From an uncultured bacterium (GTDB taxonomy: Bacteria > Patescibacteriota > Minisyncoccia > Moranbacterales > GWC2-37-73): 64,000 nt of DNA. The translations under genes were made by a program, and so were the position numbers. The notes under the pieces are model-generated. The model searched no databases and was not told the DNA's origin. It saw nothing but the letters and a program-made list of their open reading frames with translations. Shown here in pieces: positions 31,055-60,557 of the stretch (positions are counted from its first letter, which is position 1; every line of letters starts with the position of its first letter). The stretch spans positions 5,936 to 69,935 of the forward strand of contig CAIOVI010000019.1 of NCBI GenBank assembly GCA_903861715.1, in the 5' to 3' direction.

Positions 31055-31260
31055 AGTTATGAAACATGGAACATGAAACATGAAACAAGAAATCAATCTT
31101 CTTATGTTCTAAGAAAAATATGCTTCGTGTTTTATGCTACGTGTTCTATGATGATGTTGATTTATTACAAGGTTTACTGTATCATAGCTATTGAGTTTTG
31201 ACAAGACTAAAGTCATATAACATAAAACACATAACATAAAGCAGGGCTCATCCATGTTCC

Positions 31261-33214: not shown

Positions 33215-33321
33215 TTATATTTAACAGATTAACACTGATATAAAACTGATAAACACTGATCACGGATATCCGTGCTCCGTAAAAATCCGTCAAGGATCTG
33301 TTAAAATCAGTATAAAAAAAT

Positions 33322-43989: not shown

Positions 43990-45183
43990 ATGGCAGTAGG
44001 AAAATTTGAGCGAACAAAACCACATGTAAACGTTGGAACAATTGGACACGTTGACCACGGCAAGACAACTTTGACCGCGGCTATTTTGCATTGCCAAAGC
44101 TTGAAAGGTTTTGCGAAAGAAAGAGGTGTTAATGAAATTGACAACGCTCCAGAAGAAAGAGAGCGCGGAATCACCATTGCAACTTCACACTGTGAATATG
44201 AAACCGAGGCTCGTCACTACGCTCATGTTGATTGTCCAGGTCATGCTGACTACATCAAAAACATGATCACAGGAGCTGCTCAAATGGACGGATCTATTAT
44301 CGTGGTTAGCGCTACTGATGGTCCTATGCCTCAGACTCGCGAACACATCTTGCTTGCCAAACAAGTTGGTGTGCCAGCAATCGTGGTTTTCATCAACAAG
44401 GTTGATATGGTTGATGACGCTGAATTGATTGACTTGGTGGAAGCTGAAATTCGAGAACTTTTGACCAAATATGAATTCGACGGAGAAAACGCTGCTGTTG
44501 TTCGCGGCAGCGCTACCAAGGCTTTGGCTGCAACATCTATTGAAGATCCTGCCGCTAAACCAATTTATGACTTGATGGATGCCCTTGATGCAAAAATTCC
44601 AGATCCAATTCGTGACACTGACAAGCCATTGTTGATGCCTATCGAAGACATCTTCTCAATCGAAGGTCGTGGAACGGTGGTGACCGGAAGAATCGAAAGA
44701 GGTGTGATCAACATCAATGAAGAAGTTGAAATCGTGGGTCTTCGCCCAACCGCCAAAACTGTGGTAACTGGAATTGAAATGTTCAACAAATCATTGGACA
44801 AAGGACAAGCCGGAGACAATGCGGGACTTTTGCTTCGCGGAATCAAGAAGGAAGATGTTGAACGCGGACAAGTTTTGGCCAAGACTGGCTCAATCACTCC
44901 CCACACTGAATTTGAAGGAGAAATTTACATTTTGACCAAAGAAGAAGGCGGACGACACACTCCATTTTTCAAAGGATACAAACCACAATTTTACATCCGA
45001 ACAACGGATGTGACTGGTGAAGTTATCCTGCCAGAAGGAACTGAAATGGTTATGCCTGGAGACACAATCAGCTTGACTGTCAAATTGATTGCCCCAGTTG
45101 CGATGGAAGAAGGAATGCGCTTTGCTATTCGCGAAGGAGGACGCACCGTTGGAGCCGGAGTTGCTACCAAAATCATCAAGTAA
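43990..45183 (+). CDS. tuf: elongation factor Tu
   Basis: [18 protein letters not shown] and NKVD motifs. The start is at [12 protein letters not shown]. Confidence 0.95.
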
Positions 45184-45277
45184 GTTCGAGTTTACTATGC
45201 AGACATAAGTCAAATTATGTCTGCTTGTGTTTCCTCAAACAATGTTTAAACAGTAATTTTTATTTCAATCTACTCAG

Positions 45278-45613
45278 ATGGCTTCGAAAAAAATAGAATC
45301 AGGACAAACATCCACCAGAATCAGAATTAAGATCAAAGCTTATGACAATAAGGTGATTGATCAGTCAGCCCGCAAAATTGTTGAAACTGCGGAACGAACC
45401 GGCGCCAGAATTACTGGTCCCGTGCCACTTCCAACAGAAATTCACAAGGTGACTGTCAACAAATCAACTTTTGTGCACAAGGATGCTCGCGAACAATATG
45501 AAATGCGAATCCACAAGCGTTTGGTTGACATCTGGGATCCAACTCCAAAGACAATTGAAAGCTTGACTGGGCTTGATTTGCCAGCTGGAGTTGATTTGGA
45601 AATCAAAATGTAG
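45278..45613 (+). CDS. rpsJ: 30S ribosomal protein S10
   Basis: [40 protein letters not shown] is canonical uS10. Confidence 0.95.
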
Positions 45614-45931
45614 TATGCGAATAGTCGCGAATGAGTGTTACGAATGGATGCGAATTATTTCCGAATAGTCGCGAATTGGCTGAAAAGCTTGCATAAATTT
45701 AAAAATTGGTTTAGGATAAATAGACTAGAAAAAAGAAAAGAAACTAGTTAAAGTCCGGCCTTAAAAAGTCGGATACTCAATTAGCCAAGTCGCGGACTTT
45801 TCCGTTGACTCTGCTGGCTGAGAAGTCAGTTTTTTTAATCCTACGAAATTACGAAAAATATGGAATGATTTATTTTTGTAAATTTGTAAAGAGTTATAAA
45901 TTTTAGAATAAAGTTTAGGATATTTACTGAT
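45614..45931 (+). promoter_or_regulatory. unusually long (318 bp) S10-L3 spacer containing cgaat-rich repeats and two terminator-like hairpins (45759-45800 and 45805-45837, the latter followed by T7)
   Basis: aaagtccggcc ... gtcgcggacttttcc, and tgactctgctggctgagaagtcagttttttt. Confidence 0.5.
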
Positions 45932-46492
45932 ATGAAAAATATTTTAGGAAAAAAAATGGGCATGACAACGCTGTATGATCAAACGCAAGGTGCGCTTAAT
46001 GTTACTTTGATTGAATGCGAGCCAAACACTGTGGCTATTGTCAGGACTTCCGAGAAAGATGGTTATAGTGCCGTCCAACTTGCCACCCAAAAGACCAAGA
46101 AAGTTGCTCACAAGAAAGAATTTCGCAGTGAGCAGGCGGTGACATTGGCTGTTGGGGACAAGATTACCGTTGAAAATTTTGCGATTGGAGATTTGGTCAA
46201 GGTTAGCGGAATTGCCAAGGCAAAAGGATTTCAGGGAGGCGTGAAAAGACATGGGTTTGCGGGTTCTCCTGCATCTCATGGACACAAGCACGATTTGCGA
46301 GCTCCTGGTTCAATTGGTGCTCAGCAACCACAGCATGTTATCAAAGGAAAAAGAATGGCTGGACGTATGGGAGGCAAGAGAAAATCAGTGAAGAATGTGA
46401 AAGTGGTTTATTTGAATGTTGAAAAGAATTTGATCGGTGTGCTTGGCTCAGTGCCAGGTGTCGTCGGAAGAGTGGTTGAAATTAAAGGATAA
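45932..46492 (+). CDS. rplC: 50S ribosomal protein L3
   Basis: GKKMGMTTLYD start and overall uL3 blocks. Confidence 0.9.
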   Translation: MKNILGKKMGMTTLYDQTQGALNVTLIECEPNTVAIVRTSEKDGYSAVQLATQKTKKVAHKKEFRSEQAVTLAVGDKITVENFAIGDLVKVSGIAKAKGFQGGVKRHGFAGSPASHGHKHDLRAPGSIGAQQPQHVIKGKRMAGRMGGKRKSVKNVKVVYLNVEKNLIGVLGSVPGVVGRVVEIKG

Positions 46493-46591
46493 TACGAATG
46501 CTGATACGAATTATGCCCGAATTATATACGAATATAATTTTAGGACAATTCGGATGTAATTAGGATATAATTTGGATTAAAATTAGGATAT
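46493..46591 (+). repeat. r-protein intergenic repeat (type 1)
   Basis: atacgaatgctgatacgaattatgcccgaattatatacgaatataatt ... aattaggatataatttggattaaaattaggatat ATG. Confidence 0.8.
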
Positions 46592-47221
46592 ATGGCTACA
46601 ATTGCCCTGCACAATCTAGAAGGAAAGAAATTGGAAGATTTGAACATTTCAGATGCGGTTTTCGCAGTGAAATCAAACGATGAACTTTTGCACCAAGTTT
46701 TCATGGTGATTGCTGGCAATCAAAGATTTTCAATTGCCAACACAAAAGACAAAAGTGAAGTTGCTGGAACTGGCAAAAAACCTTTCAAGCAAAAAGGAAC
46801 TGGCAGCGCCCGTCAAGGACAGAAAAGAAATCCAGTGATGAAAGGTGGTGGAATTGCTTTTGGACCAACCAGCGATCGAAATTTCAAACGCGATGTGAAC
46901 AAAAAAATGAAGCAAAAGGCGGTGCGGATTGCGCTTTCTGAAAAACTTCGCAGCGGAACTTTGATTGCGGTTGATGCTCTTGAGCTCAAGGACGCCAAAA
47001 CCAAAGCTTTTGCGCAAGTTATCAAAAACCTCAAACTGACTGGAAAGACTTTGGTGTCATTTGCTGATGGAGAAAAGAAATTGTCAATTGCTAGTCGCAA
47101 TCTTCCCAAGATTGCCAATATTGAAACCAAGGATTTGAATGTATATGATTTGCTCAACAACAAAAATGTGCTCTTGAGCAAAGCCTCGATTGCATTTTTG
47201 GAAGAAAAATTTAGCAAGTAA
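46592..47221 (+). CDS. rplD: 50S ribosomal protein L4
   Basis: KQKGTGSARQGQ ... GGGIAFGP uL4 blocks. Confidence 0.9.
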   Translation: MATIALHNLEGKKLEDLNISDAVFAVKSNDELLHQVFMVIAGNQRFSIANTKDKSEVAGTGKKPFKQKGTGSARQGQKRNPVMKGGGIAFGPTSDRNFKRDVNKKMKQKAVRIALSEKLRSGTLIAVDALELKDAKTKAFAQVIKNLKLTGKTLVSFADGEKKLSIASRNLPKIANIETKDLNVYDLLNNKNVLLSKASIAFLEEKFSK

Positions 47222-47323
47222 ATCGCGAATCAACTCGAATTTAAATCCGAATAATCGCGAATAAAAAAGTATTAGAGAAAATTAGTGAAATAATTAGTGT
47301 TGATTAGTGATTTATTTAAACAT
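47222..47323 (+). repeat. r-protein intergenic repeat (type 2: gtattagagaaaattagtgaaataattagtgttgattagtgatttat)
   Basis: About 50 nt are shared with the S3-L16 spacer at 50541-50631. Confidence 0.7.
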
Positions 47324-47707
47324 ATGGCAGTAATAGAAGAGAAAAAAGAGAATATTGCAAAAAAGGAAGTAGCGGCCAAAAAGGCAGTGAAAAAGGTTGT
47401 TCCTCGAGCTGCTGAAAATGCCGACATTGCTTACAAAGTTTTGGTTGAACCTTGGATCACTGAAAAATCCCATGCAGGCTTGGCTGAAAACAAATATGTT
47501 TTCAGAATCACCCAGGATGCTACCAAGGCGCAAGTGAAAAAAGCAATCGAAGGTTTTTATCAAGTGAGTGTCCAAAAGGTTGCAGTTTTGAATTTTATTC
47601 CAAAGAAAAGAGCCTATGGCAGATTCGAAGGCGCAAAATCAGCAATCAAGAAAGCCGTGGTGACTTTGAAAGAAGGAGATAAGATTGAATTGTTCCAAGG
47701 AGCCTAG
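47324..47707 (+). CDS. rplW: 50S ribosomal protein L23 (with Lys/Ala-rich N-terminal extension)
   Basis: YKVLVEPWITEKSHAGLAENKYVFRI uL23 core. The start is at the MAVIEEKK ATG. Confidence 0.85.
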   Translation: MAVIEEKKENIAKKEVAAKKAVKKVVPRAAENADIAYKVLVEPWITEKSHAGLAENKYVFRITQDATKAQVKKAIEGFYQVSVQKVAVLNFIPKKRAYGRFEGAKSAIKKAVVTLKEGDKIELFQGA

Positions 47708-47815
47708 ATGCGAATTATGATGCGAATTATATCCGAATATAATCCGAATCAGCAGGAAAGCTTTTTATGAAAAATTCGGAAATAATTAGGATGTAATTTG
47801 AATAAAAATTAGGAT
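47708..47815 (+). repeat. r-protein intergenic repeat (type 1b subfamily)
   Basis: gatgcgaattatgatgcgaattatatccgaatataatcc ... aattaggatgtaatttgaataaaaattaggat. Near-identical to 52555-52664. Confidence 0.8.
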
Positions 47816-48646
47816 ATGGCAATTAAAGTATACAAAAAGAATACCGCAGGTAGGCGAAATATGAGTATTGTGAAGCCTGATGATTTGACCAAGAAGAAAC
47901 CTGAGAAATCTTTGCTGGCGCCAATGACTCAAAAGGCTGGACGCAGTCACGGCAAGATTTCAACCAGGCATCAAGGTGGTGGACACAAGAGACGCTATCG
48001 CTTGGTGGATTTCAAGCAACAAAAATTTGATATTCCTGGAAAAATTATTGCGATTGAACGAGACCCAAACAGAAGCGCTTTGATTGCTTTGGTTTCATAT
48101 AAAGATGGAGACAAACGATACGTGTTGGCTTCAGAAGGGATGAAGCAAGATGTGGAAATTGTGTCAGGCGAAAGCGCACCAATCAAAAAAGGTAATCGAA
48201 CCGTGCTGCGAAACATTCCTTCGGGAACAATCATCTCGAACATTGAATTAGTGGTTGGCAAAGGCGGACAACTTTCACGTAGCGCTGGATCCGGAGCAAC
48301 TTTGATGGCTATTGATGGAAAGATGGCGCAATTGAAAATGTCCTCGAATGAAATTCGTTTGGTGAGCAAAGATTGCTATGCAACTATTGGAAAAGTGAGC
48401 AACTTCGAACATAGCGCTGAAAAAATTGGAAAGGCTGGAAGAAACAGATGGAAAGGCAAACGACCAGAAGTTCGCGGATCAGCCATGAATCCAGTTGATC
48501 ATCCACACGGAGGAGGAGAAGGCCGACAAGGAATTGGATTGAAACATCCGAAGACTCCATGGGGCAAGCCAGCTCTCGGAAAGAAGACCAGAAAGAAGAA
48601 AAGATACAGTGATAAGTTTATTGTCAAGCGAAGAGTCAAGAAATAG
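47816..48646 (+). CDS. rplB: 50S ribosomal protein L2
   Basis: Canonical uL2 sequence including HPHGGGEG. Confidence 0.95.
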   Translation: MAIKVYKKNTAGRRNMSIVKPDDLTKKKPEKSLLAPMTQKAGRSHGKISTRHQGGGHKRRYRLVDFKQQKFDIPGKIIAIERDPNRSALIALVSYKDGDKRYVLASEGMKQDVEIVSGESAPIKKGNRTVLRNIPSGTIISNIELVVGKGGQLSRSAGSGATLMAIDGKMAQLKMSSNEIRLVSKDCYATIGKVSNFEHSAEKIGKAGRNRWKGKRPEVRGSAMNPVDHPHGGGEGRQGIGLKHPKTPWGKPALGKKTRKKKRYSDKFIVKRRVKK

Positions 48647-48745
48647 ATACGAATGATGATACGAATTACATCCGAATTATATACGAATATAATTTACGGA
48701 TAATTCGGATATAATTAGGATATAATTTGAATAATAAATTAGGAT
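48647..48745 (+). repeat. r-protein intergenic repeat (type 1)
   Basis: atacgaatgatgatacgaattacatccgaattatatacgaatataatttacggataattcggatataattaggatataatttgaataataaattaggat. Confidence 0.85.
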
Positions 48746-49093
48746 ATGTCAAGAAGTTTAAAGAAAGGACCATTTGTTGATGAGCGCGTTGTGAAGAAAG
48801 TTCTCAATGCAACTCCAGGGCAAGGCACAATTAAAACTTGGTCACGAGCCTGCACAATTACGCCTGAAATGATTGGTTTCACTTTTGGAGTGCATAACGG
48901 CAAAGAATTTATTCCAGTTTATGTCACAGAAGAAACGGTTGGACACCGACTGGGGGAATTTTCACCAACTCGCAAATTTGTCAGACATGGAGGTAAAATG
49001 CAGAAAGAAATAGAATCAGCCGCCAAGCAAAAAGCCCAAGATGCAGCCAAAGCAGCCAAGGCTGAGCCAGCAGGAGGAGCGAAGAAGAAATAG
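48746..49093 (+). CDS. rpsS: 30S ribosomal protein S19 (with Ala/Lys-rich C-terminal extension)
   Basis: [11 protein letters not shown] ... [13 protein letters not shown] uS19 core. Confidence 0.9.
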
Positions 49094-49194
49094 ATACGAA
49101 TGTTGATACAAATTACATCCGAATTATATACGAATATAATTTATGAAAAATCCGGATATAATTAGGATATAATTCGAATAATAAATTAGGATAT
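49094..49194 (+). repeat. r-protein intergenic repeat (type 1)
   Basis: Near-identical to 48647-48745. Confidence 0.85.
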
Positions 49195-49779
49195 ATGAAA
49201 GTTAAAGCCTCACTCAAAAATTTAAGAATGTCTCCCCGAAAGGTCAGATTGGTCACCCGTAGTATTGTGGGCATGAATGTTGCTCAAGCCTTGATTCAAT
49301 TGCAAAATTTGGTCAAGAAAACGAGCAATCCTTTGGAGAAATTACTGCGAAGCGCTATTGCTAACGCCGAAAACAATTTTGGATTGGACAAAGACAATTT
49401 GTTTGTCAACAATATCCAAGTTGGTGGAGGACCAAGTTTGAAACGCTGGCTCCCGAGGGCTCAAGGACGAGCGACACTGATTTTGAAGAGAACTTGTCAA
49501 ATTGATCTGGAATTGGAAGAAAGTGTGGAAGGCAAGAATCGCAAATCGAAAGAGCAATTGGAAAAAGAAAGAGCGCAGCGAGAGAAGGCGACGCAAAAAA
49601 CAACTAAGGTGGAAGAAGTGAATGAAGCGGAAGTTGTGGATGAAGCGAAACCAGCGGAAACAGTAACTCAAAAAACAGTCACCAAAAAAACTCCAGTCAA
49701 GAAAGAAGTTCCCAAGAAAGGACAACAGAAAGATGGCAATTTTTTGAATAAAGTGTTTCAGCGAAAATCAGGAGTATAA
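49195..49779 (+). CDS. rplV: 50S ribosomal protein L22 (with long charged C-terminal extension)
   Basis: uL22 core over the first 110 aa, followed by a Lys/Glu-rich tail. Confidence 0.9.
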   Translation: MKVKASLKNLRMSPRKVRLVTRSIVGMNVAQALIQLQNLVKKTSNPLEKLLRSAIANAENNFGLDKDNLFVNNIQVGGGPSLKRWLPRAQGRATLILKRTCQIDLELEESVEGKNRKSKEQLEKERAQREKATQKTTKVEEVNEAEVVDEAKPAETVTQKTVTKKTPVKKEVPKKGQQKDGNFLNKVFQRKSGV

Positions 49780-49883
49780 ATACGAATGAGATGCAAATTA
49801 TGGACGAATTGGATGCGAATGTGGCATAAAGTTTAAAAATTGGGATATAATTAGTATATAATTAGGATATTAAATTAGAATAT
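49780..49883 (+). repeat. r-protein intergenic repeat (type 1, degenerate copy)
   Basis: Starts atacgaatgagatgcaaattatggacgaatt and ends gatataattagtatataattaggatattaaattagaatat. Confidence 0.6.
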
Positions 49884-50540
49884 ATGGGACATAAAGTAAA
49901 CCCAATAGGATTGCGAATAGGTATTACCAACACTTGGAAATCGAGGTGGTTTTCTGACAAGGATTATACCAAAAAGCTCAAAGAAGACATTCAAATCAGG
50001 GAATTCATCAAAAAGAAATACAAGAGTGCTGCTATTGCAGAGGTTGAAATTCATCGCAGTGCTGGCACCTTGAAACTGATTTTGAAAACTTCCAGACCTG
50101 GAGTTTTGATTGGGCGCGGCGGAAATGGAATCGGTGACATCAGCAAAATAATCAAAGATAAGTTCTTCGCTGGTCGAAAGATCGATTTGAAAATTGAAGC
50201 TCAGGAAGTTCGTCAGTTTGAAGAAAATGCTTCACTGGTTGCACAAAGCGTGGCTGAACAGTTGGAAAAACGAGTGCCTTTCAGAAGAATTTTGAAGTCA
50301 ACACTGGACACAGTTGAGAAAAATAGAATTGTCAAAGGAGTGAAAATTGAAGTTTCCGGACGCTTGGGTGGAGCTGAAATGTCTCGTCGAGAATGGCTTT
50401 CAAGAGGAACGGTGCCGCTGCACACTTTGCGAGCAGACATTGATTTCGCCAAGGCAACTGCCTTTACAACCTATGGAGCCATTGGAGTGAAGACTTGGAT
50501 TTACAAAGGAGAGGTGTTTGATGAAAAAAATGCGAATTAA
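49884..50540 (+). CDS. rpsC: 30S ribosomal protein S3
   Basis: GHKVNPIGLRIG uS3 N-terminus and KH domain. Confidence 0.95.
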   Translation: MGHKVNPIGLRIGITNTWKSRWFSDKDYTKKLKEDIQIREFIKKKYKSAAIAEVEIHRSAGTLKLILKTSRPGVLIGRGGNGIGDISKIIKDKFFAGRKIDLKIEAQEVRQFEENASLVAQSVAEQLEKRVPFRRILKSTLDTVEKNRIVKGVKIEVSGRLGGAEMSRREWLSRGTVPLHTLRADIDFAKATAFTTYGAIGVKTWIYKGEVFDEKNAN

Positions 50541-50631
50541 TTTGAATCTGATTTAAAATGATTGCGAGTGTAGCAAAGTATTAGAGAAAATTAGTGACAT
50601 AATTAGTGTGGATTAGGGATTTACCAAATAT
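50541..50631 (+). repeat. r-protein intergenic repeat (type 2)
   Basis: gtattagagaaaattagtgacataattagtgtggattagggatttac. Confidence 0.7.
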
Positions 50632-51045
50632 ATGTTGATGCCAAAAAAAGTTAAACACAGAAAGATTCACCGAGGAGGAGAAATTCGGGGAGTTGCAACC
50701 AAAGGTAATGCCGTGAGTTTCGGCAGCTTTGGACTCAAGGCCGAAACCTCAGGACTGATTTCAGCTCGTCAAATTGAAGCTGCTCGAAGAGCGATGACCA
50801 GATATGTGAAAAGAGGTGGCAAGATTTGGATCAGGATTTTTCCGGACAAGCCAATGACCAAAAAAGGTGATGAAACTCCGATGGGTAAAGGAAAAGGTAG
50901 TGTGGATCATTTTGTAGCTAAGATTAAGGAGGGAAGAATGTTGTTTGAAATGGATGGGATCGATGTTTCAGTTGCCAAGGAGGCAATGAGACTTGCTTCT
51001 CACAAATTGTGTGTCAAAACAAAATTTGTGGCAAAGGAAAAATAG
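50632..51045 (+). CDS. rplP: 50S ribosomal protein L16
   Basis: [15 protein letters not shown] uL16 N-terminus. Confidence 0.95.
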
Positions 51046-51147
51046 TATCCGAATGTTGATACAGATTACATCCGAATTGTATACGAATATAATTCATGAA
51101 CAATCCGGATATAATTAGGATATAATTCGAATAATAAATTAGGATAT
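51046..51147 (+). repeat. r-protein intergenic repeat (type 1)
   Basis: tatccgaatgttgatacagattacatccgaattgtatacgaatataattcatgaacaatccggatataattaggatataattcgaataataaattaggatat. Confidence 0.85.
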
Positions 51148-51336
51148 ATGAAAATTCAGGAAATTAGAGATTTAAATATTGAGCAAATCAAAAAGCTCAT
51201 TGCCGAGAAAAGAACGCAGGCAGTGAAACTTCGTTTTGATATTGCAGCTCGCCAGCTCAAAAATCATCGTGAGTATCGAGCTATCAAGAAAGATGTCGCT
51301 CAAGCGTTGACGGTTTTGAAGCAACTCGAGCAATAA
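51148..51336 (+). CDS. rpmC: 50S ribosomal protein L29
   Basis: Helical protein of about 62 aa with the uL29 pattern, at the expected position. Confidence 0.85.
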   Translation: MKIQEIRDLNIEQIKKLIAEKRTQAVKLRFDIAARQLKNHREYRAIKKDVAQALTVLKQLEQ

Positions 51337-51441
51337 AAGAATAATGTGAATGTCGATACGAGTTATGTCCGAATTATATGCAAATATAATTTAAGGACAA
51401 TTCGGATATAATTAGGATATAATTAGGATAAAAATTAGGAT
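51337..51441 (+). repeat. r-protein intergenic repeat (type 1)
   Basis: ... gtccgaattatatgcaaatataatttaaggacaattcggatataattaggatataattaggataaaaattaggat. Confidence 0.8.
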
Positions 51442-51681
51442 ATGACAAACACCACTAAAAAATTAGCAACCAAAAAAGGAAAAGTTGTGAGCGACTCAAT
51501 GGACAAAACCATTGTGGTTGCAGTTCAAACGCTGAAAACTCATCCGAAATATTTGAAGAAATATCGCTCGACCAAGAAATACAAGGTTCACGACGCAGAA
51601 AACAAGCACAAGGTTGGAGAAGTGGTGGAATTTGTGCAATGCAGGCCATTAAGCAAGGACAAGAACCACACATTAGCCTAA
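51442..51681 (+). CDS. rpsQ: 30S ribosomal protein S17
   Basis: GKVVSDSMDKTIVVAV ... YKVHDE uS17 blocks. Confidence 0.9.
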   Translation: MTNTTKKLATKKGKVVSDSMDKTIVVAVQTLKTHPKYLKKYRSTKKYKVHDAENKHKVGEVVEFVQCRPLSKDKNHTLA

Positions 51682-51781
51682 AATACGAATGTTGATACGA
51701 ATTAATCCGAATTATATGTAAATATAGTTTGAGGACAATTCGGATATAATTAGGATATAATTTGGATAAAAATTAGGATAT
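51682..51781 (+). repeat. r-protein intergenic repeat (type 1)
   Basis: aatacgaatgttgatacgaattaatccgaattatatgtaaatatagtttgaggacaattcggatataattaggatataatttggataaaaattaggatat. Confidence 0.85.
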
Positions 51782-52147
51782 ATGATTCAAGCAGAAACAA
51801 GATTAAGAGCAGCTGATAATTCTGGAGCAAAAGTGATTGAATGCTTCAAGATTCTGGGTGGAACTCGCAGGCGTTATGCCTCTGTGGGCGACATCATTGT
51901 TTGCTCTGTTAAATCAGCTGAACCGAGAGGCTTGGTGAAGAAAGGAGACAAAGTTCGCGCCGTGATTGTCAGACAGAAAAAAGCCTACAGACGCAAAGAT
52001 GGATCCTATATCCGTTTTGATGAAAATGCTGCGGTGATTGTTAATGAAAAAGAGCCGAAAGGAACCCGTATTTTTGGACCAATTGCCAGAGAATTGCGTG
52101 AAAAAGGTTTTGCCAAGATTGTGTCATTGGCGCCAGAAGTATTATAG
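51782..52147 (+). CDS. rplN: 50S ribosomal protein L14
   Basis: [17 protein letters not shown] uL14 N-terminus. Confidence 0.95.
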
Positions 52148-52248
52148 ATACGAATGTTGATACGAATTACATCCGAATTATATTTACGAATATAATTTAC
52201 GGACAATTCGGATATAATTAGGATATAATTCGAATAATAAATTAGGAT
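52148..52248 (+). repeat. r-protein intergenic repeat (type 1; differs at one position from the 53930-54030 copy)
   Basis: atacgaatgttgatacgaattacatccgaattatatttacgaatataatttacggacaattcggatataattaggatataattcgaataataaattaggat. Confidence 0.9.
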
Positions 52249-52554
52249 ATGAGAATTAAAAAAGGAGACCTCGTGAAAAAAATTGCAGGCAAGGATAAGG
52301 GAAAACAAGGCAAAGTCTTGCGAACTGTGCCAAGCGAGGGAAAAATTGTGGTTGAAAAAATGAACATTGTGAAAAAGCACAAGAAGGCTCGCCGAGAAGG
52401 AGAAAAGGGACAAAGAGTTGAAATTGCTGCTCCCTTTGATGCTTCGAACGCAATGTTGATTTGTCCATCCTGTGGAAAAGCAACTCGAACTTCCTATGCT
52501 TTTATCAAAGAAAGGAAAGTGCGAGTTTGCAAGAAATGTGGGAAGGAAATCTAG
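52249..52554 (+). CDS. rplX: 50S ribosomal protein L24 with a C-terminal CxxC...CxxC zinc-ribbon-like tail
   Basis: KOW region KKGDLVKKIAGKDKGKQGKV. The C-terminus CPSCGKATRTSYAFIKERKVRVCKKCGKEI replaces the usual uL24 tail. Confidence 0.85.
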   Translation: MRIKKGDLVKKIAGKDKGKQGKVLRTVPSEGKIVVEKMNIVKKHKKARREGEKGQRVEIAAPFDASNAMLICPSCGKATRTSYAFIKERKVRVCKKCGKEI

Positions 52555-52664
52555 ATACGAATTATGATGCGAATTATGTCCGAATATAATCCAAATCAAT
52601 AAATCAGTTTTTTATAAAAAATTCGGAAGAAATTAGGATGTAATTTGAATAAAAATTAGGATAT
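52555..52664 (+). repeat. r-protein intergenic repeat (type 1b subfamily)
   Basis: atacgaattatgatgcgaattatgtccgaatataatccaaatca ... aattaggatgtaatttgaataaaaattaggatat. Confidence 0.8.
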
Positions 52665-53213
52665 ATGAAAATAACTCCAGCAAAAGAAAAATATACGAAA
52701 ACTGTTGCAGCTCAAATGCAAGAGAAATTTGGATATAAAAGCGTCATGGCAGTGCCTCGAATCAAGAAAGTGGTGGTTAATGTTGGAATTGGCAAGATTG
52801 TGAAGGAAAATGATAAAATTGAGGAAGTCGTCAATACTTTGACCGCTATTACTGGGCAAAAACCTGTCAAAACCAAAGCCAAGAAAGCGATTGCCGGTTT
52901 TAAAACCAGAGAAGGCATGGAAGTTGGCGTGAAAGTGACTTTGCGAGGAGCTCGGATGTGGCAGTTTATTGACAGATTGATTGTGGCTACCTTGCCAAGA
53001 ACAAGAGATTTCCAAGGCATCACCCGTAAATCAGTTGACAGCCATGGGAATATAAACATTGGAATCAAGGAGCATTTGATTTTTCCTGAGATTTCCCCTG
53101 AACGTGTAAAATATACTTTCGGATTGCAAGCGACAGTTTCAACGACTGCCACCTCACAAGCAGAAGGTTTGGAATTATTTAAATTATTAGGATTTCCGCT
53201 GAAAAGCGAATAA
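52665..53213 (+). CDS. rplE: 50S ribosomal protein L5
   Basis: KEKYTKTVAAQMQEKFGYKSVMAVPRIKKVVVNVGIG is canonical uL5. Confidence 0.95.
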   Translation: MKITPAKEKYTKTVAAQMQEKFGYKSVMAVPRIKKVVVNVGIGKIVKENDKIEEVVNTLTAITGQKPVKTKAKKAIAGFKTREGMEVGVKVTLRGARMWQFIDRLIVATLPRTRDFQGITRKSVDSHGNINIGIKEHLIFPEISPERVKYTFGLQATVSTTATSQAEGLELFKLLGFPLKSE

Positions 53214-53233
53214 GTAAAATTGATTAAATAAAT

Positions 53234-53419
53234 ATGGCGAAAACATCTACCCAAGCTAGAGCAGAAAAAAAACCAAAATTTTCGACCCGTGAGGTGCGAA
53301 GGTGTTGGCGTTGTGGTCGGAAACATGGTTATCTTCGAGCCTTTGATATTTGCAGAATTTGCTTTCGCGAGTTGGCAAGTAAAGGAGAACTGCCGGGGGT
53401 AAAGAAAAGTAGTTGGTAA
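53234..53419 (+). CDS. rpsN: 30S ribosomal protein S14 (type Z, zinc-binding, 61 aa)
   Basis: [23 protein letters not shown]. Confidence 0.9.
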
Positions 53420-53524
53420 ATACGAATTATTTATCCGAATTACATCCGAATTATATGAAGATATGATTTGTGAATAATCCAGATAAAAAATAAGATAATT
53501 ATAATTAGGATAAAGAATTAGAAT
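53420..53524 (+). repeat. r-protein intergenic repeat (type 1, diverged 3' half)
   Basis: atacgaattatttatccgaattacatccgaattatatgaagatatgatt ... ataattaggataaagaattagaat. Confidence 0.7.
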
Positions 53525-53929
53525 ATGTTAGATCCAATAGCAGACATGCTCACAAGAATTAGAAACGCCCAGCGAGCGAAACACAAAGAGGTTTCGGTGC
53601 CGTTTTCGAAGTTGAAATATTCTATTGCTCAAATTTTGCAGCAAAGACATTTCATTCAAGCTGTCAAAAAAGAAGATGGAGAGAAATTTCCAGTGCTCAA
53701 CATTACTTTGAAATATGAGGTTGTTTCCAACACGGAGAAAAATCCTGCCATTCGGGAGATCAAGAGAGTGAGTCGAGAAGGTCAGCGGATTTATGTGAAA
53801 AAGACTGACATCAAGCGAATCAAGAACGGCTATGGAATTTCAATTGTTTCCACTTCCAAGGGTATGATGACTGGAGACAGTGCCAGAAAATTGGGATTGG
53901 GCGGGGAAATAATTTGTGAGGTCTGGTAG
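53525..53929 (+). CDS. rpsH: 30S ribosomal protein S8
   Basis: DPIADMLTRIRNA uS8 N-terminus. Confidence 0.95.
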   Translation: MLDPIADMLTRIRNAQRAKHKEVSVPFSKLKYSIAQILQQRHFIQAVKKEDGEKFPVLNITLKYEVVSNTEKNPAIREIKRVSREGQRIYVKKTDIKRIKNGYGISIVSTSKGMMTGDSARKLGLGGEIICEVW

Positions 53930-54030
53930 ATACGAATGTTGATACGAATTACATCCGAATTATATTTACGAATATAATTTACGGACAATTCGGATATAAT
54001 TAGGATATAATTTGAATAATAAATTAGGAT
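53930..54030 (+). repeat. r-protein intergenic repeat (type 1)
   Basis: Differs from the 52148-52248 copy at one position. Confidence 0.9.
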
Positions 54031-54567
54031 ATGAGTAGAATTGGAAAAAAACCGGTAGCTATTCCTCAGGGAGTGACTATTAATGTAGATAAGAACTTGG
54101 TATCCGTGACTGGGCCAAAGGGCTCACTTAAATTTGAACACCACTCCGATGTGGCGATCGAAATCAGTCCAGAAAGTCTTTTGGTTGAAAAGAAGGGCAA
54201 TGGTAAAAATGCACCAGCGATTTGGGGAACCACGGCTAGGGTTATTGAGAACATGATTGAAGGCGTGACTGTGGGTTTCAAAAAACAACTTGAACTCAAT
54301 GGCGTTGGTTTCCGTATGTCAGTGGCTGGCAAAAAAATCAACTTGGCACTTGGATTTTCACATCCAGTGGAGGTGGTAGTTCCAGCTGAACTTGACGTTA
54401 TTATCGAAGGAAATACCATGACAGTTTCGGGGATTGATAAGCATGCCGTGGGACAATTTTCTGCCAACATCAGAGCGCTTAAACCAGTTGAGCCATATAA
54501 GGGAAAAGGATTTAAATATGTTGGTGAACATGTGAGACGCAAAGAAGGCAAGAAATCATCGAAATAA
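54031..54567 (+). CDS. rplF: 50S ribosomal protein L6
   Basis: SRIGKKPVAIPQGV uL6 N-terminus. Confidence 0.95.
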   Translation: MSRIGKKPVAIPQGVTINVDKNLVSVTGPKGSLKFEHHSDVAIEISPESLLVEKKGNGKNAPAIWGTTARVIENMIEGVTVGFKKQLELNGVGFRMSVAGKKINLALGFSHPVEVVVPAELDVIIEGNTMTVSGIDKHAVGQFSANIRALKPVEPYKGKGFKYVGEHVRRKEGKKSSK

Positions 54568-54653
54568 GGCATCCGAAAAGCGCACTACGAAAGCGCCCAT
54601 ACGAAATTTCGTAGATTCGCATTTAATTCGTAGATTCGTATCGGTAAATCATT

Positions 54654-55004
54654 ATGAAAAAAATAAGTAACAATAGCAATCGTTTGCAAAGAAAACGCCG
54701 AGTCAGGGCGAAGATTTCAGGCACCGTTGAGCGTCCTCGACTTTCAGTTTTCAAAAGCTTGAAGGGTATCTATGCGCAGGTTATTGATGATGCAACTGGC
54801 AAGACTTTGGCAAGCGCTAAGCTCTCAGAAATCAAAAAAGCTGCCAACACGATTGAGGGCGCTGGAGCAGTTGGAAAATTGGTGGCTGAAAAATGTTTGG
54901 CCGCGAAAATTGAAACAGTAATATTCGACCGATCAGGTTATCAATATCATGGCAAGATAAAAGCTCTCGCAGATGGAGCTCGTGAAGGCGGACTGAAATT
55001 TTAA
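54654..55004 (+). CDS. rplR: 50S ribosomal protein L18
   Basis: [20 protein letters not shown] uL18 block. Confidence 0.9.
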
Positions 55005-55120
55005 GTTAAGTAAACAGAATTAACACGGATTTTTAACAGAATTAACACGGAAACACGGAAACTATTTTGAATTTTTTTGTGTCGTTCTGTAATTTTCTGT
55101 GTAATTCCGTTATAGTATAT

Positions 55121-55654
55121 ATGGACAAAAGATCAGGAAAAAAACCAATGAGAAGAGAGAAGCCAGAATTTGAGCAGAAGCTTTTGGATTTGGCTCGAGT
55201 TACGCGCGTGGTTAAGGGTGGACGAAGATTTCGCTTTCGTGCAACGTTGGTGATTGGAAATCGCAAAGGTCAAGTTGGCGTTGGAGTCGCCAAGGGCTCG
55301 GATGTTTCCGATGCGATTCAAAAGGCTTTCAATGATGCCAAGAAATCTATGATTACTGTGAAATTGTCTGGAAACACAATTCCCCATGACGTTCACATGA
55401 AAAAAGGCAGCGCAAAAATTTTGCTCAAGCCTGCTGCTGAAGGACGTGGAGTTATCGCTGGAGGAGCTGTCAGAGCCGTGGTTGACTTGGCTGGAATTCG
55501 TGACATTGTTTCAAAATCACTCGGAACTTCCAATAAGCTGAATGTGGCCAGAGCAACTATTGAAGCCTTGCGAAGCCTTAAGGAGCCAAGGATCAAAGTC
55601 GAAGCCGTGAAGGCTGAAGTAGTCGTCAAAGATGAGAAAGTAGAAGTTAAATAG
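55121..55654 (+). CDS. rpsE: 30S ribosomal protein S5
   Basis: LLDLARVTRVVKGGRRFRFRATLVIGNRKGQVGVGVAKG is canonical uS5. The start is at MDKRSGKK. Confidence 0.95.
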   Translation: MDKRSGKKPMRREKPEFEQKLLDLARVTRVVKGGRRFRFRATLVIGNRKGQVGVGVAKGSDVSDAIQKAFNDAKKSMITVKLSGNTIPHDVHMKKGSAKILLKPAAEGRGVIAGGAVRAVVDLAGIRDIVSKSLGTSNKLNVARATIEALRSLKEPRIKVEAVKAEVVVKDEKVEVK

Positions 55655-55775
55655 CATTTTTTCTGTTTTATAAATTATTGGCCCCACAAATCTACAAATT
55701 GACTACAAATCTATAAATGCGCATGAATTTATTTGTAGATTTGTATAAGATTCGTAGATTAGTAGGGATATTGTT

Positions 55776-56210
55776 ATGCAAATTCATCAACTTACGCTCA
55801 AAAAAAGGAAGCCAAAAAAGACCGTTGGTCGCGGAGGAAAACGTGGAACTTATTCTGGCCGAGGAAATAAGGGGCAAAAAGCTCGCTCAGGAGCTTCAAT
55901 TGATCCTTTGTTTGAAGGAGGTCGTTCCTCATTGACGGAACGTCTCAAGAAAGTGCGGGGATTCAAATCTCGAACTCCAAAGAAGACCGTGGTGAAGATT
56001 TTTGATTTGGAAAAGAATTTCAAAGATGGCGAGGTTGTTTCAATTGAAAGCTTGATAACTGCCAAGATTATTTCCAAAAAAGATTCAAAGGATGGCGTGA
56101 AAATTTTGACAACTGGTGAAATCACCAAAAAACTCACAATCGACAAAGAACTTTTGCTTTCACAATCTGCCAAAGATGCTATTGTTAAGGCAGGAGGAAC
56201 AATTTTATAG
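55776..56210 (+). CDS. rplO: 50S ribosomal protein L15
   Basis: LKKRKPKKTVGRGGKRGTYSGRGNKGQKARSG uL15 N-terminus. Confidence 0.9.
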   Translation: MQIHQLTLKKRKPKKTVGRGGKRGTYSGRGNKGQKARSGASIDPLFEGGRSSLTERLKKVRGFKSRTPKKTVVKIFDLEKNFKDGEVVSIESLITAKIISKKDSKDGVKILTTGEITKKLTIDKELLLSQSAKDAIVKAGGTIL

Positions 56211-56316
56211 TCATTCAATCATTTAAACATGCAAACAGTTAAACATATTAGCATTTAAACATGGTTTCAATAGGGTGTTGTTTAAATGATTAGATGTTTA
56301 GATGTTAAAATGAAAG

Positions 56317-57588
56317 ATGTTGGACAAAATAACACAAATTTTTAAGGTCAAAGAACTGCGTGATAAGATCCTCTTTATTTTAGGGGTTCTTATTGTTTTT
56401 CGCGTGGCTGCTAATATTCCTTTGCCAGGAGTTGACAGTGAGCAACTTCGTAGACTTTTTGAGGGCAATCAATTGCTCGGCATGCTTAACGTTTTTTCCG
56501 GAGGCGGCTTGACAAACATTTCAATCGTTATGTTGGGAGTGGGTCCTTATATCACAGCCTCAATCATCATGCAGCTTTTGACGATGATTGTGCCTAGCAT
56601 TGAACAAATTTACAAAGAAGAGGGCGAGGCTGGCAGGCAAAAATTCAACATGTGGACGCGTTGGCTCACTGTGCCTTTGGCAGTGATGCAGACTTTCGGG
56701 CTGGTGACTTTGCTGAAATCGCAAAACGTGATTGGCAATTTAACCCCGTTTAATTTAGCAGTGCTCATTTTGATTGCCACCACCGGAACCATCTTTTTGA
56801 TGTGGCTGGGAGAGCTCATCACGGAGAAAGGCATTGGTAATGGAGTTTCCCTTATCATTTTTGCCGGCATCGTCAGCAGTTTGCCTTCTTCAATCTCCAA
56901 ACTTTTTTTGACTTTTGATTCTTCTCAATTTTTCACCTATGCAATCATTCTGGCAGTCATGCTGGTGACGATTGCAGGCGTGGTTATGGTGACTGAGGGG
57001 CAACGCAATATTGAAGTTTCCTATGCCAAGCGAGTGCATGGCGGCAACACCTATGGCGGAGCTGCTTCGCATTTGCCGCTGCGAGTCAATCAAGCGGGTG
57101 TTATTCCGATCATTTTTGCAATGTCAATCATGCTTTTTCCTGGCATGATTGCAACTTTTTTGATGCGAGTCAGTAATCAAACCGTGGCGTCTTTTGCAAC
57201 TAGCGTGAACAATCTGTTTCAGAATCAAGTTTTTTATGGCAGTGCTTACTTTGTCTTGATTGTGCTCTTCACATATTTTTATACAGCTGTGGTTTTTGAT
57301 CCAGTGAAAATTTCAGAGAATTTGCAAAAACAAGGTGGTTATATTCCAGGTATTCGTCCAGGTAAGACTACGGCGGACTATTTGTTTAAAATCATGAACC
57401 GAATAACTTTGGCTGGCGCCTTGTTTCTGGGAGCTATTGCGGTCTTGCCATTCATTGTGCAGGGCCTGACCAACATTCAAACTTTGCGCATCGGTGGAAC
57501 AAGTGTGCTGATTGTCGTTTCAGTTGTCATCGAAACCATCAAACAAATTGAAGGACAATTAGTGATGCGAGACTACGAAGGATTTTAA
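56317..57588 (+). CDS. secY: preprotein translocase subunit SecY
   Basis: 10-TM protein with SecY blocks (GVGPYITASIIMQLL, GIGNGVSLIIF). Confidence 0.9.
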   Translation: MLDKITQIFKVKELRDKILFILGVLIVFRVAANIPLPGVDSEQLRRLFEGNQLLGMLNVFSGGGLTNISIVMLGVGPYITASIIMQLLTMIVPSIEQIYKEEGEAGRQKFNMWTRWLTVPLAVMQTFGLVTLLKSQNVIGNLTPFNLAVLILIATTGTIFLMWLGELITEKGIGNGVSLIIFAGIVSSLPSSISKLFLTFDSSQFFTYAIILAVMLVTIAGVVMVTEGQRNIEVSYAKRVHGGNTYGGAASHLPLRVNQAGVIPIIFAMSIMLFPGMIATFLMRVSNQTVASFATSVNNLFQNQVFYGSAYFVLIVLFTYFYTAVVFDPVKISENLQKQGGYIPGIRPGKTTADYLFKIMNRITLAGALFLGAIAVLPFIVQGLTNIQTLRIGGTSVLIVVSVVIETIKQIEGQLVMRDYEGF

Positions 57589-57598
57589 AAGTCACAAA

Positions 57599-57658
57599 AC
57601 ATAGAGCATAGAGCATAGAGCATTTTTGTTCCATGTTCCATGTTCCATGTTCCATGTT
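57599..57658 (+). repeat. two adjacent tandem heptamer arrays, (catagag)x3 and (ccatgtt)x4, ending at the adk ATG
   Basis: acatagagcatagagcatagagcatttttgttccatgttccatgttccatgttccatgtt. Confidence 0.8.
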
Positions 57659-57660
57659 TA

Positions 57661-58308
57661 ATGAATTTGATAATCTTCGGTCCCCAGGGCTCTGGCAAGG
57701 GGACGCAAGCCAACAAACTAGCCGAGAAATTTAATCTGTCCCATCTTGAAACCGGACAGATTTTTCGTGATATTGCTAGAGAAGATTCTTCCTTGGGAAG
57801 AAAAATAAAAGAGTTGAATGAAAATAAAGAAATGATTCCAGATCAAATTACAGTTGAAGTCCTGAGGCATTTTCTAGAACTGGTTCCTTCTGAAAAAGGC
57901 GTTATTCTGGACAGCGCTCCGCGCACTTTTGGTCAAATTGAGCCAGTTGAAAAAACCATGCAAGAAGAAGGTCGAACTATAGATAAGGCCATCTATATCG
58001 CGCTTTCATATGAAGAATCCGTAGCTAGAATAACCAAGCGCTTCGCTTGCACCAAGTGTTTCAGACATTTCGTGCTTGGAAAAGACATCCAAGATAGCAG
58101 TGAAAATTGTCCAACCTGCGGAGGTCTAATTATGCAAAGAGGTGACGACACCCCAGATGGAATTGCCAAGCGACTCAAAACTTTTTATGAAGTTACGATG
58201 CCGGTCATTGAGCATTATCGAGCAAAGGGAATGTTGATCGAGGTGGATGGAAAGCAGGGAGTGGAGGAAGTTTTTGAGGATATTTTAAGAGGATTAAATA
58301 AGGAATAG
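57661..58308 (+). CDS. adk: adenylate kinase (with Cys4 zinc LID)
   Basis: IIFGPQGSGKGTQ P-loop, plus CTKC ... CPTCGG in the LID domain. Confidence 0.9.
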   Translation: MNLIIFGPQGSGKGTQANKLAEKFNLSHLETGQIFRDIAREDSSLGRKIKELNENKEMIPDQITVEVLRHFLELVPSEKGVILDSAPRTFGQIEPVEKTMQEEGRTIDKAIYIALSYEESVARITKRFACTKCFRHFVLGKDIQDSSENCPTCGGLIMQRGDDTPDGIAKRLKTFYEVTMPVIEHYRAKGMLIEVDGKQGVEEVFEDILRGLNKE

Positions 58309-58443
58309 AGTTTTATCAATCTATTATAGAAAAACAATTTTTAATTTTTAATTTTTAATTTTCAAAATATTAAATTTTAAAACATTTAATTAAACATTTT
58401 AATTTGATTTCAAATTTCAAATTTCAAATTTAAAATTCAGCAG

Positions 58444-60301: not shown

Positions 60302-60333
60302 TAACCAAGATACAATAACCAAGGTATAATAAC

Positions 60334-60374
60334 CCTGCCTACCTGCCTATCGGCAGACAGGCCGGCAGGCAGGC
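60334..60374. repeat. GC-rich hairpin related to the element-A palindrome (cctgcctacctgcc ... ggcaggcaggc)
   Basis: Shares the gcctgcctacc motif with 14638-14659 and 30307-30328. Confidence 0.4.
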
Positions 60375-60557
60375 AAACAAAATTCAATAATCAAAACTCA
60401 AGCATTCAAAGCCTTTGTATTTTTGGATATTGGAATTTGAAACTTGTTTGTGATTTGTATCTTGTGTCTTGTTTCTTTATAAATTTTCTAGTTACTAGTT
60501 GGCCTAGGCATATTTTAATCCTGTGGTATAATTAGAACATCTAATAAGTAATATAAA

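Follow-up and report, generated by a model that had tools for sequence, protein, structure and literature searches.

A conserved leader RNA between rpsJ and rplC in Moranbacteria resembles the S8-binding site of 16S rRNA and is a candidate attenuator of the ribosomal-protein cluster

Why should two ribosomal-protein genes, rpsJ (S10) and rplC (L3), stand 318 nt apart, and does the hairpin with a run of T in the spacer between them act as a terminator or attenuator, as an initial annotation of this DNA proposed? The window (the whole stretch of DNA that was analysed, 64,000 nt) represents the ribosomal-protein region of a Candidatus Moranbacteria (Patescibacteria/CPR) genome, and its nearest loci show 95-96% L3 identity. 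In the window rpsJ follows tuf, as the S10 gene follows that of EF-1alpha in archaea; the features discussed here are collected in Table 1. Both flanks of the spacer were confirmed with Pfam, and its length is exactly the 318 nt that had been claimed. Moreover, in a survey of 45 loci retrieved through L3, the S10-L3 spacer measured 113-362 nt in 42/42 Patescibacteria loci with both genes found, and 19 and 9 nt in two non-CPR loci. The long rpsJ-rplC spacer is hence a lineage trait.

Table 1. Features in and around the rpsJ-rplC spacer (positions in the window; pairings and functions of the RNA elements as predicted)
Feature	Position	Strand	Evidence or detail
EF-Tu (tuf)	43990-45183		Pfam-confirmed
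rpsJ (S10), upstream flank	45278..45613	+	Pfam PF00338, E = 2e-36
rpsJ-rplC spacer	45614-45931		exactly 318 nt
5' half of CGAAT-word cassette, outside the leader proper	45614..45680	+	six CGAAT, 10-13 nt apart
Promoter-like box	45689..45717	+	-35 TTGCAT 45689-45694, 17-nt spacer, -10 TAGGAT 45712-45717
Aptamer-like domain	45744..45784	+	P1 enclosing internal loop and P2
P1	45744-45749 (CUAGUU) with 45779-45784 (AAUUAG)	+	RNAalifold, covariation counts
Putative S8-site mimic	45751..45777	+	identity to E. coli 16S h21; descriptor scan reports 45751-45777
P2 hairpin	45753..45774	+	GUCCGGC / GUCGGAU, loop 45760-45767
Candidate alternative antiterminator	45776..45822	+	45776-45785 (CUCAAUUAGC) with 45813-45822 (GCUGGCUGAG), enclosing P3
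P3 hairpin	45788..45810	+	per-sequence folds, window fold
P4 intrinsic-terminator hairpin + U7	45813..45836	+	stem 45813-45819 / 45824-45830, loop GAGA, T7 45830-45836
Rest of rplC 5' UTR	45837..45931	+	further CGAA words; Shine-Dalgarno-like AGGA 45917-45920
rplC (L3), first gene regulated in the proposal	45932..46492	+	Pfam PF00297
L4	46592-47221		Pfam-confirmed
rpsH (S8), proposed effector	53525..53929	+	ORF; same strand and cluster as rplC

Two hairpins had been described in the spacer. The second, said to have a stem of 6-7 bp followed by T7, was found as a 7-bp stem at 45813-45830 with T7 at 45830-45836; this stem (GCUGGCU/AGUCAGU) is weak, as two of its seven pairs are G.U. For the first, placed at about 45759-45800, an inverted repeat does exist in the window (45764-45777 / 45788-45801, 79% complementary), as does an 8-bp complement read from the sequence, AAAGUCCG/CGGACUUU at 45750-45757 / 45793-45800. 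Its pairing is absent from the conserved structure in the alignment of relatives and was therefore rejected; the conserved hairpins nearby are P2 and P3. Folding of 45750-45840, a check that had been suggested, gave z = -3.05, with 1/200 shuffles equally good, while no stable fold was found in the CGAAT-word part (45611-45725; z = +0.48). Terminator-like sites in the region numbered 5 against 6.3 in shuffles, i.e. no excess. Taken by itself, the window sequence gives only weak to moderate evidence in the chance test; it is the comparative evidence (conservation, covariation and context) that places the observation far above chance.

The comparison with relatives reveals a structured RNA of ~96 nt at 45741-45838 that includes the second hairpin. 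Its consensus, as read off the spacers, is ACUAGUUAAAGUCC-[variable hairpin]-GGAUACUCAACUAGCYAA-[variable hairpin]-GCUGGCU-loop-AGCCAG-U6-8. With a covariance model (CM) built from 34 sequences we found one copy per locus, always in the rpsJ-rplC spacer. The score is 78 bits in the window (45741-45838) and 52-95 bits in 37 Moranbacteria/Parcubacteria loci; all other matches in ~580 kb, those in the remainder of the 64-kb window among them, stay at or below ~18 bits. Some lineages, such as L037-L040, L042 and L171, lack the leader. A CM of the core only gives 47.4 bits at the aptamer-like domain, its sole match in the 64-kb window. No Rfam 15 family reached the gathering score anywhere in the window, and none matched the motif even at E <= 10. 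The initial annotation had named lack of conservation in relatives as evidence against its hairpin, and this hairpin proves to be conserved.

The stems are maintained in different ways. P1 is paired at 99.8% and has G.U changes besides one compensatory column, and P2 has four pairs with compensatory changes and a distal part that varies freely. P3 was found in every homologue, its sequence not being conserved. The core of P4 is 97% paired, with compensatory changes in 3/4 core pairs, and this terminator hairpin, with a G+C-rich stem and U6-8, is present in 95/95 CM hits. Among 83 distinct sequences, eight pairs in all are compensatory (one in P1, four in P2 and three in P4), 96% of cells are paired as opposed to 16-41% with the partners slid, and double-change cells number 113 against 33 +/- 7 in shuffles, none of 500 shuffles reaching 113. 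The internal loop (AAA opposite ACUC) is invariant, and the P1/loop/P2 arrangement is supported by covariation. In the rows taken from metagenomes, invariance of the P1 and loop columns follows from the construction of the search pattern, and the rows selected through L3 independently show the same invariance. Across the element there are 162 G.U and 12 A.C pairs, an excess which indicates that the RNA strand is the rplC strand; the opposite strand was rejected on these counts and on reverse-strand CM scores of at most 18 bits. A small ORF or other coding function was likewise rejected, with stops in 5/6 frames and stem lengths that span all three mod-3 classes. We are highly confident that the element is a conserved RNA that regulates in cis and has a terminator-type hairpin at its end.

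What might such an RNA bind? The RNA recognized by S8 is a helix with an asymmetric internal loop of seven conserved nucleotides, which is reused in the spc mRNA (PMC4176348). Two base triples, (G597-C643)-U641 and A595-(A596-U644), belong to its core, in which A642 is invariant and A640 makes a contact (PMC4176348). A word search of E. coli rRNA with the leader returned UUAAGUC at 593-599 and an exact GAUACU at 639-644, which are both strands of helix 21. The leader and helix 21 can be aligned structurally without gaps, the reference being the E. coli 16S rRNA. In this alignment AAGUC at 45751-45755 (motif A11 A12 G13 U14 C15) corresponds to A595 A596 G597 U598 C599, and GAUACU at 45772-45777 (motif G68 A69 U70 A71 C72 U73) to G639 A640 U641 A642 C643 U644. 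Judged by its nucleotides, the conserved loop copies the S8-binding core of 16S helix 21.

The window has all nucleotides of the S8 core, and in alignment A3, made up of the window and 34 loci selected through L3, 33-35 of the 35 sequences agree at each of these nucleotides. At the level of sequence, the first triple is represented by G 45753 (35/35), C 45776 (35/35) and U 45774 (33/35), and the second by A 45751 (35/35), A 45752 (33/35) and U 45777 (33/35). The A642 equivalent, A 45775, occurs in 35/35 and is also kept in the divergent subfamily described below (10 loci). The equivalent of U598-A640 is invariant, and that of 599-639 is C-G in the Moranbacteria family. Covariation starts exactly one pair outside the S8 core, and the distal stem is variable. 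Two loci (L029 and L030) differ at 3/7 core positions.

How easily could such a likeness arise by chance? For the sequence alone the coincidence is modest (199/5000 shuffles). When the helix context is required, with a 4-bp helix between the two segments and a 3-bp helix closing them, 2/20,000 shuffles match anywhere in E. coli rRNA, and the single real match is the S8 site. The S8 match was a post hoc finding, preceded by two other nominally unusual resemblances to rRNA, at 16S 902-913 (GUUAAA|ACUCAA; P ~ 8e-4) and at 16S 1089-1107 (P ~ 4e-3). The pairing context in the rRNA differs in both of these, and they were treated as chance, indicating that short A/U-rich words match rRNA easily. Moreover, helix 21 was missed by the core-only CM (R2) in a run against the E. 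coli rrnB operon (best match 7.2 bits); the likeness is therefore limited to ~11 loop-core nucleotides and their helical context. As for the protein, the S8 encoded by rpsH of the window keeps the S-T-S and R-I-Y RNA-contact residues (named in PMC4176348). Apart from the site in the leader, a descriptor scan found no canonical S8-core site in the window, neither at rplE, where the E. coli-type site would lie, nor elsewhere, and the spacers between rplC and rpsH hold no terminator-like site on the + strand.

If S8 is the ligand, diverged leaders should retain the core, and this prediction was tested. Starting from locus L041, which scores 25 bits with the CM, we fetched ten new Paceibacteria-type loci (56-82% L3 identity), and all ten have the order tuf-rpsJ-[151-526 nt]-rplC. 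In 9/10 the spacer contains GCUA(G/A)UUUAAGU...AUACU(G/A)(A/G)AUUAGCC, with an 8-bp lower helix, and then a hairpin with U6-8, while the original CM scores these loci at just 23-33 bits. This subfamily, made up of these nine loci and L041, has kept the AAGU/AUACU core without change, and the equivalent of 599-639 is G-C in four, G.U in four and A-U in two. The lower helix also retains the rRNA-like U594.G645. In 4/5 CPR loci that are more distant still, a terminator-like hairpin precedes rplC by 9-26 nt, with unrelated sequence upstream, and attenuation before rplC may be older than the S8-mimic motif.

The same leader and attenuator could instead respond to another effector, namely L4, as the E. 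coli S10 leader would lead one to expect, or L3, the first gene product. L4 is the established attenuation regulator of the rplC-rpsQ gene set in E. coli (PMC3616713), and the 'Prior' rule that was applied to an Archaeoglobi candidate upstream of rplC would likewise choose L4. The initial annotation, too, had suggested a search for mimicry of an L4 or S10 binding site, and the site that was matched is instead that of S8. Compared with the L4 site of E. coli 23S rRNA (295-343), the leader shares the GAUAC pentamer only, and mimicry of that site was rejected. In addition, the loop core and the S8 site have the same sequence, also in the divergent subfamily, which argues against L3 as well as L4. 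We consider either of these effectors unlikely.

The terminator stem may also be one of two mutually exclusive partners. Full-length leaders fold into P1, P2, P3 and the terminator, with P1 intact in 69/83 and the P4 core in 59/83. In nascent RNAs, with the 3' strand of the terminator withheld, P1 is completely lost in 59/83, and its 3' strand together with ACUC pairs with GCUGGCU around P3. This antiterminator, whose 5' strand consists of the C643/U644 equivalents plus the 3' strand of P1, is the MFE fold of the nascent transcript. The two states are nearly isoenergetic: the predicted energies in the window are -30.7 kcal/mol for the terminator state and -30.2 kcal/mol for the antiterminator, a difference of 0.5, and ddG across the family is -3.2 +/- 3.2 kcal/mol. 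The complementarity of the antiterminator strands is conserved (77-80% paired vs 9-57% when slid), and a search for covariation between them within the family found none. They do change in a compensatory manner between subfamilies, from AGCCAG/CUGGCU to AGCCAA/UUGGUU (G-C to A-U). The nearly invariant terminator strand beside freely varying stems is also what a dual pairing constraint predicts. We thus infer a mutually exclusive antiterminator as a candidate based on predicted folds. In the Paceibacteria-type subfamily the competing helix abuts P1 and does not overlap it, so that a coupling of S8 binding to termination is not obvious there.

Alternatively, S8 or another protein might bind the leader and control translation or mRNA stability, P4 and the U-tract being a structure close to the RBS or a U-rich standby site. 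In most genomes 2-40 nt separate the U-tract from the ATG (median distance from its end to the rplC ATG 32 nt; at most 40 nt in 55/81 sequences), S8 of E. coli does act on translation, and the window stem is weak; these points are in favour of such control. However, a G+C-rich stem with U6-8 occurs in every one of the CM matches and its changes are compensatory, the hairpin of the window is 95 nt from the ATG, and a nearly invariant 5' strand with a conserved competitor is the signature of a terminator/antiterminator platform. Control at the level of translation or stability therefore seems rather improbable, and attenuation of transcription remains the preferred reading.

The genomic context indicates what is transcribed through this platform. 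The loci used for the CM had been selected through L3, and for an unbiased test of the context we scanned a metagenome collection with the motif core alone. This gave 115 contigs with one match each, of which 80 were fetched; rpsJ lies just upstream in 72/72 with sufficient upstream sequence and rplC just downstream in 71/71 with sufficient downstream sequence. All fetched contigs have full-length CM matches including the terminator. Several 'TPA_asm' assemblies (Bdellovibrionales, Gammaproteobacteria, Anaerolineaceae) bear names that conflict with their L3 similarity, and these names were not relied on. The short distance between the U-tract and rplC leaves no room for a promoter and a 5' UTR, so that rplC must be transcribed through the hairpin. 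P4 thus has the make-up of an intrinsic terminator, i.e. a G+C-containing stem-loop with a U-tract, upstream of rplC and without room for an intervening promoter. Conservation, covariation, the fixed context and this lack of promoter room all support the proposal of a terminator or attenuator between rpsJ and rplC, and of a new attenuation point, that was made in the initial annotation.

A promoter-like box precedes the element in the window, with a predicted transcription start at ~45723-45726. The pattern GCTTGCAT-17-TAnnAT is common to the window and about 20 relatives; a strict box was found in 19/83 leaders and a relaxed one in 23/83. In the -10 hexamer T1, A2 and T6 are kept and positions 3-5 vary, while the -35 hexamer varies between TTGCAT, TTGCCA and TTGACA. 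Ends that are kept around varying inner positions in the -10 hexamer correspond to the mode of promoter evolution. The box suggests that the element is more than an internal site in an operon led by rpsJ; in the window genome it is probably the 5' leader of an rplC-led unit with a putative promoter upstream. In some other loci the motif starts 12-16 nt past the rpsJ stop, and transcription must there come from upstream.

The promoter-like box and the terminator could also bracket an independent sRNA gene of ~115 nt in the window genome, with its own promoter (45689-45717) and terminator (45813-45836), simply located between rpsJ and rplC. Such a gene is very unlikely, given that the box is missing from most homologues, that the position is always upstream of rplC, and that rplC is read through the element; the element is a leader/attenuator and not an sRNA gene. 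A riboswitch that senses a metabolite or alarmone and controls the ribosomal-protein cluster would share the architecture of an aptamer followed by a terminator, but the conserved part is confined to an internal loop of 3 x 4 nt flanked by two plain helices; it contains neither a junction nor a pseudoknot and coincides with a known protein-binding site, which makes this reading very improbable too. Finally, functionless chance hairpins in an AT-rich spacer, which the lack of an excess of terminator-like matches over shuffles might suggest, are refuted by the conservation in 38 sequences (the window and 37 loci) and 80 fetched contigs, the covariation and the exclusive context.

We therefore return to the attenuator with an S8-site mimic. 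In the mechanism that we propose, the leader RNA at 45741-45838 would be a cis-regulator of the ribosomal-protein cluster that starts at rplC. S8 present in excess over free 16S rRNA would bind the leader and hold P1 and the loop; the antiterminator would then be blocked, the terminator would form and transcription would stop ahead of rplC. With S8 sequestered by rRNA, the antiterminator would prevail and transcription would run on into the cluster. That S8 binds, that termination really takes place, which way the switch works and that the upstream promoter is active are inferred here, and we consider the full mechanism reasonably likely. We regard the element as a probable feedback switch, not described before, of the main ribosomal-protein cluster.

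Autoregulation of ribosomal-protein operons through rRNA mimicry is a textbook principle, and its S8 version is known only in E. coli and near relatives. In the spc operon of E. coli, S8 represses through a mimic of helix 21 in which the core is conserved and the distal stem variable (PMC3616713). The leader resembles this operator at the rplE start in being an mRNA copy of the 16S helix-21 S8 site with the same loop nucleotides, in keeping the core beside a variable distal stem, and in having the S8 gene in the same transcript (PMC4176348, PMC3616713). The two differ in several respects. The leader lies upstream of rplC, which heads a fused S10-spc cluster, while the E. coli site overlaps the rplE start; its strands follow the order found in rRNA, with a hairpin closing the upper helix; and its platform is a predicted terminator/antiterminator, whereas in E. 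coli the RBS is occluded, L5 is repressed and translational coupling is involved. They also belong to Patescibacteria and Gammaproteobacteria, respectively, and have no sequence homology past the core. The element thus appears to work like the E. coli spc operator and not to be a member of that family.

Other known leaders share parts of this design. The E. coli S10-operon leader, which serves L4 attenuation, is, like the proposed leader, an attenuator of transcription that responds to a protein and controls rplC, rplD and the genes after them, and it also has a hairpin domain followed by a terminator hairpin. Unlike the present leader, which is downstream of rpsJ, it is located upstream of rpsJ, binds L4 and needs NusA, and we found no Rfam or sequence similarity between it and the element. 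In B. subtilis, L20 (infC) and L10(L12)4 (rplJL) bind rRNA-like leader sites and favour termination (PMC1865079, PMC4538822); the proposed terminator/antiterminator shift is similar, while the proteins, structures, operons and phylum differ. The 'L4' r-leader candidate of Archaeoglobi (Eckert and Weinberg 2020) is likewise a conserved structure directly upstream of an rplC-led cluster, and as in the window S10 is not the first gene of the rplC-led unit. It differs in having an unrelated motif, in belonging to another domain of life, in a ligand that was assigned by precedent and in that no terminator platform was reported.

To our knowledge, the regulatory RNAs of CPR bacteria are almost unexplored. 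We found no CPR r-leader, S8-dependent terminator leader or Moranbacteria intergenic repeats described in the literature, and as far as this search shows the element would be the first ribosomal-protein leader proposed for CPR bacteria. According to a 2024 review, spc/S8 regulation is not known outside E. coli and Vibrio. The candidate S8 operator therefore belongs to a very distant and largely uncultivated radiation, and both its position before rplC and the proposed transcription attenuation are unlike the E. coli case. The CM together with a simple descriptor allows the rpsJ-rplC spacers of all Patescibacteria to be annotated.

The spacer is rich in CGAAT, as had been claimed, with six copies at 45618-45676. 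Across the whole window the word shows no enrichment (147 copies, 152 expected); its copies cluster in intergenic spacers. This richness is unrelated to the attenuator and belongs to genome-specific repeated intercistronic cassettes. Twelve spacers from rplC to rplF each hold one cassette of ~100 nt that runs from stop to start, with the layout (NNN-CGAAU)x4, a centre, (AUUNGGAU)x3-4 and then AUG. A hairpin in the cassette is merely potential, as the consensus fold is weak (-4.7 kcal/mol) and shows no covariation. Close relatives have other word families at the same positions, or just 13-50 nt, and a 21-mer of the cassette was found in 1/161 fetched loci. Promoter-like sites number 41 against 28 +/- 5 expected, and the repeated cassettes carry such matches.

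Because these cassettes contain promoter-like boxes, transcription of the genes further downstream, rpsH among them, may not depend on the leader alone. A far wider and speculative reading, which we hold to be doubtful, is that a single S8-sensing attenuator before rplC is the master switch of a fused S10-spc(-alpha) cluster of >20 genes in a large part of Patescibacteria, taking the place of the individual L4, S8 and S4 circuits known from E. coli. Part of this reading is that the cassettes would form a second layer, not yet described, alongside the switch. They would be rapidly exchanged, homogenised within the genome and different from those of close relatives, and each would combine the potential to form a hairpin with a promoter-like box and an end that resembles a Shine-Dalgarno sequence. 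Apart from the element and the cassettes, the tuf-rpsJ spacer contains a further conserved hairpin, in which 8/10 pairs covary.

Twelve near-identical cassettes of about 100 nt, characterised by CGAAU words, occupy intercistronic positions in the window, each of them bounded exactly by a stop codon and the next ATG. Their 5' part consists of three to four NNN-CGAAU units spaced about 11 nt apart, which lead into a centre, and the part that follows the centre reads AUUCGGAU/AUUAGGAU/AUUUGRAU/AUUAGGAU. The hairpin that the cassettes can potentially form is long and imperfect, at -18 to -20 kcal/mol and with a z of about -2.5, and in the predicted structure the terminal AGGAU and the AUG stay unpaired. 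Covariation was not detectable among the 12 copies because their sequences are too similar.

Other repeat families are also found in the intergenic regions of this genome. A second family, built on CGCGAAU, is represented in the window by one cassette and a copy of a 3' half, and is the dominant cassette family in the related locus L004. Many further spacers have the same build with different words, i.e. a short word every ~10-11 nt followed by inverted repeats of that word; for instance, the words are CUACAAAU/AUUUGUAG in the rpsE-rplO spacer and UUAAACAU/AUGUUUAA in the rplO-secY spacer. Judged from these spacers, short words that are repeated and then inverted look like a general intergenic style of the genome.

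Cassette content differs at orthologous spacers between the window and the related loci L001, L002, L004 and L005. Relatives with 87-96% L3 identity possess either another word family or just 13-50 nt at the matching intergenic position; the S17-L14 spacer, for instance, measures 100 nt in the window and 13 nt in L001, and in L004 it holds 111 nt that belong to a different family. To judge by these comparisons, the turnover of cassette content is very fast. Within a single genome, by contrast, one word family is common to many spacers, and the 21-mer GGATATAATTAGGATATAATT of the window cassettes was found in only one of the 161 fetched loci. This distribution suggests that cassettes are spread or homogenised within a genome.

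Every CGAAU cassette also holds promoter-like matches, of the forms (A/C)GGACA-18-TATAAT and AUUACA-17-TATAAT. Such sites are therefore enriched in 45840-58000, where 41 were observed against 28.4 +/- 5.1 expected. If the cassettes do carry internal promoters, this bears on the extent of the cluster controlled by the rplC leader.

Repeat cassettes, promoter-like matches and the tuf-rpsJ hairpin (window positions)
Feature	Positions	Spacer	Sequence
CGAAU cassettes 1-6	46493-46591, 47708-47815, 48647-48745, 49094-49194, 49780-49883, 51046-51147		
CGAAU cassettes 7-12	51337-51441, 51682-51781, 52148-52248, 52555-52664, 53420-53524, 53930-54030		
Promoter-like matches in cassettes	46542-46571, 51394-51423, 51732-51761, 52200-52229, 53982-54011, and others		
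Second family, cassette	47222-47296	rplD-rplW	CGCGAAU x4 ... AUUAGAGA/AUUAGUGA
Second family, 3' half copy	50541-50631	rpsC-rplP	
Same build, different words	54568-54653, 55655-55775, 56211-56316, 58309-58443, 60302-60557, 62576-62736, 33215-33321, 31097-31260		
Conserved hairpin, 10 bp	45199-45224	tuf-rpsJ (45184-45277)	GCAGACAUAA...UUAUGUCUGC, then UUGUGUUYMCU

The hairpin in the tuf-rpsJ spacer shows compensatory changes in 8 of its 10 pairs among 19 relatives, and matches no Rfam family. Possible readings of this hairpin are a partial terminator, an element for processing or stability, and a leader of its own for S10.

Within the rplC leader, the 5' strand of the S8 core (AAAGUCCG, 45750-45757) is perfectly complementary to the 3' part of hairpin P3 (CGGACUUU, 45793-45800), and a weaker form of this pairing (AGUCCAA/UUGGACU) occurs in the closest relatives only. 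It may correspond to the first hairpin of the initial annotation, and could represent an additional, clade-specific alternative pairing or chance. Two further likenesses of the leader to E. coli 16S rRNA that are unusual by their nominal P values, one to 902-913 (strands GUUAAA/ACUCAA; P ~ 8e-4) and the other to 1089-1107 (GUUAAGUCC...CAACGAGC; P ~ 4e-3), are probably due to chance because their pairing context is unmatched.

Long rpsJ-rplC spacers without the leader motif of the window are present in more distant CPR (L038, L039, L041 and L042, from Saccharibacteria, Kerfeldbacteria and others), and these end in a terminator-like hairpin with a U-run 9-26 nt upstream of rplC. Attenuation before rplC may be widespread in CPR, with differing sensor domains.

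Several 'TPA_asm' assemblies among the fetched loci (L014/L015, L020/L021 and others) are titled Bdellovibrionales, Gammaproteobacteria or Anaerolineaceae. These labels look unreliable, since the L3 genes are of Moranbacteria or Parcubacteria type and the leader is present.
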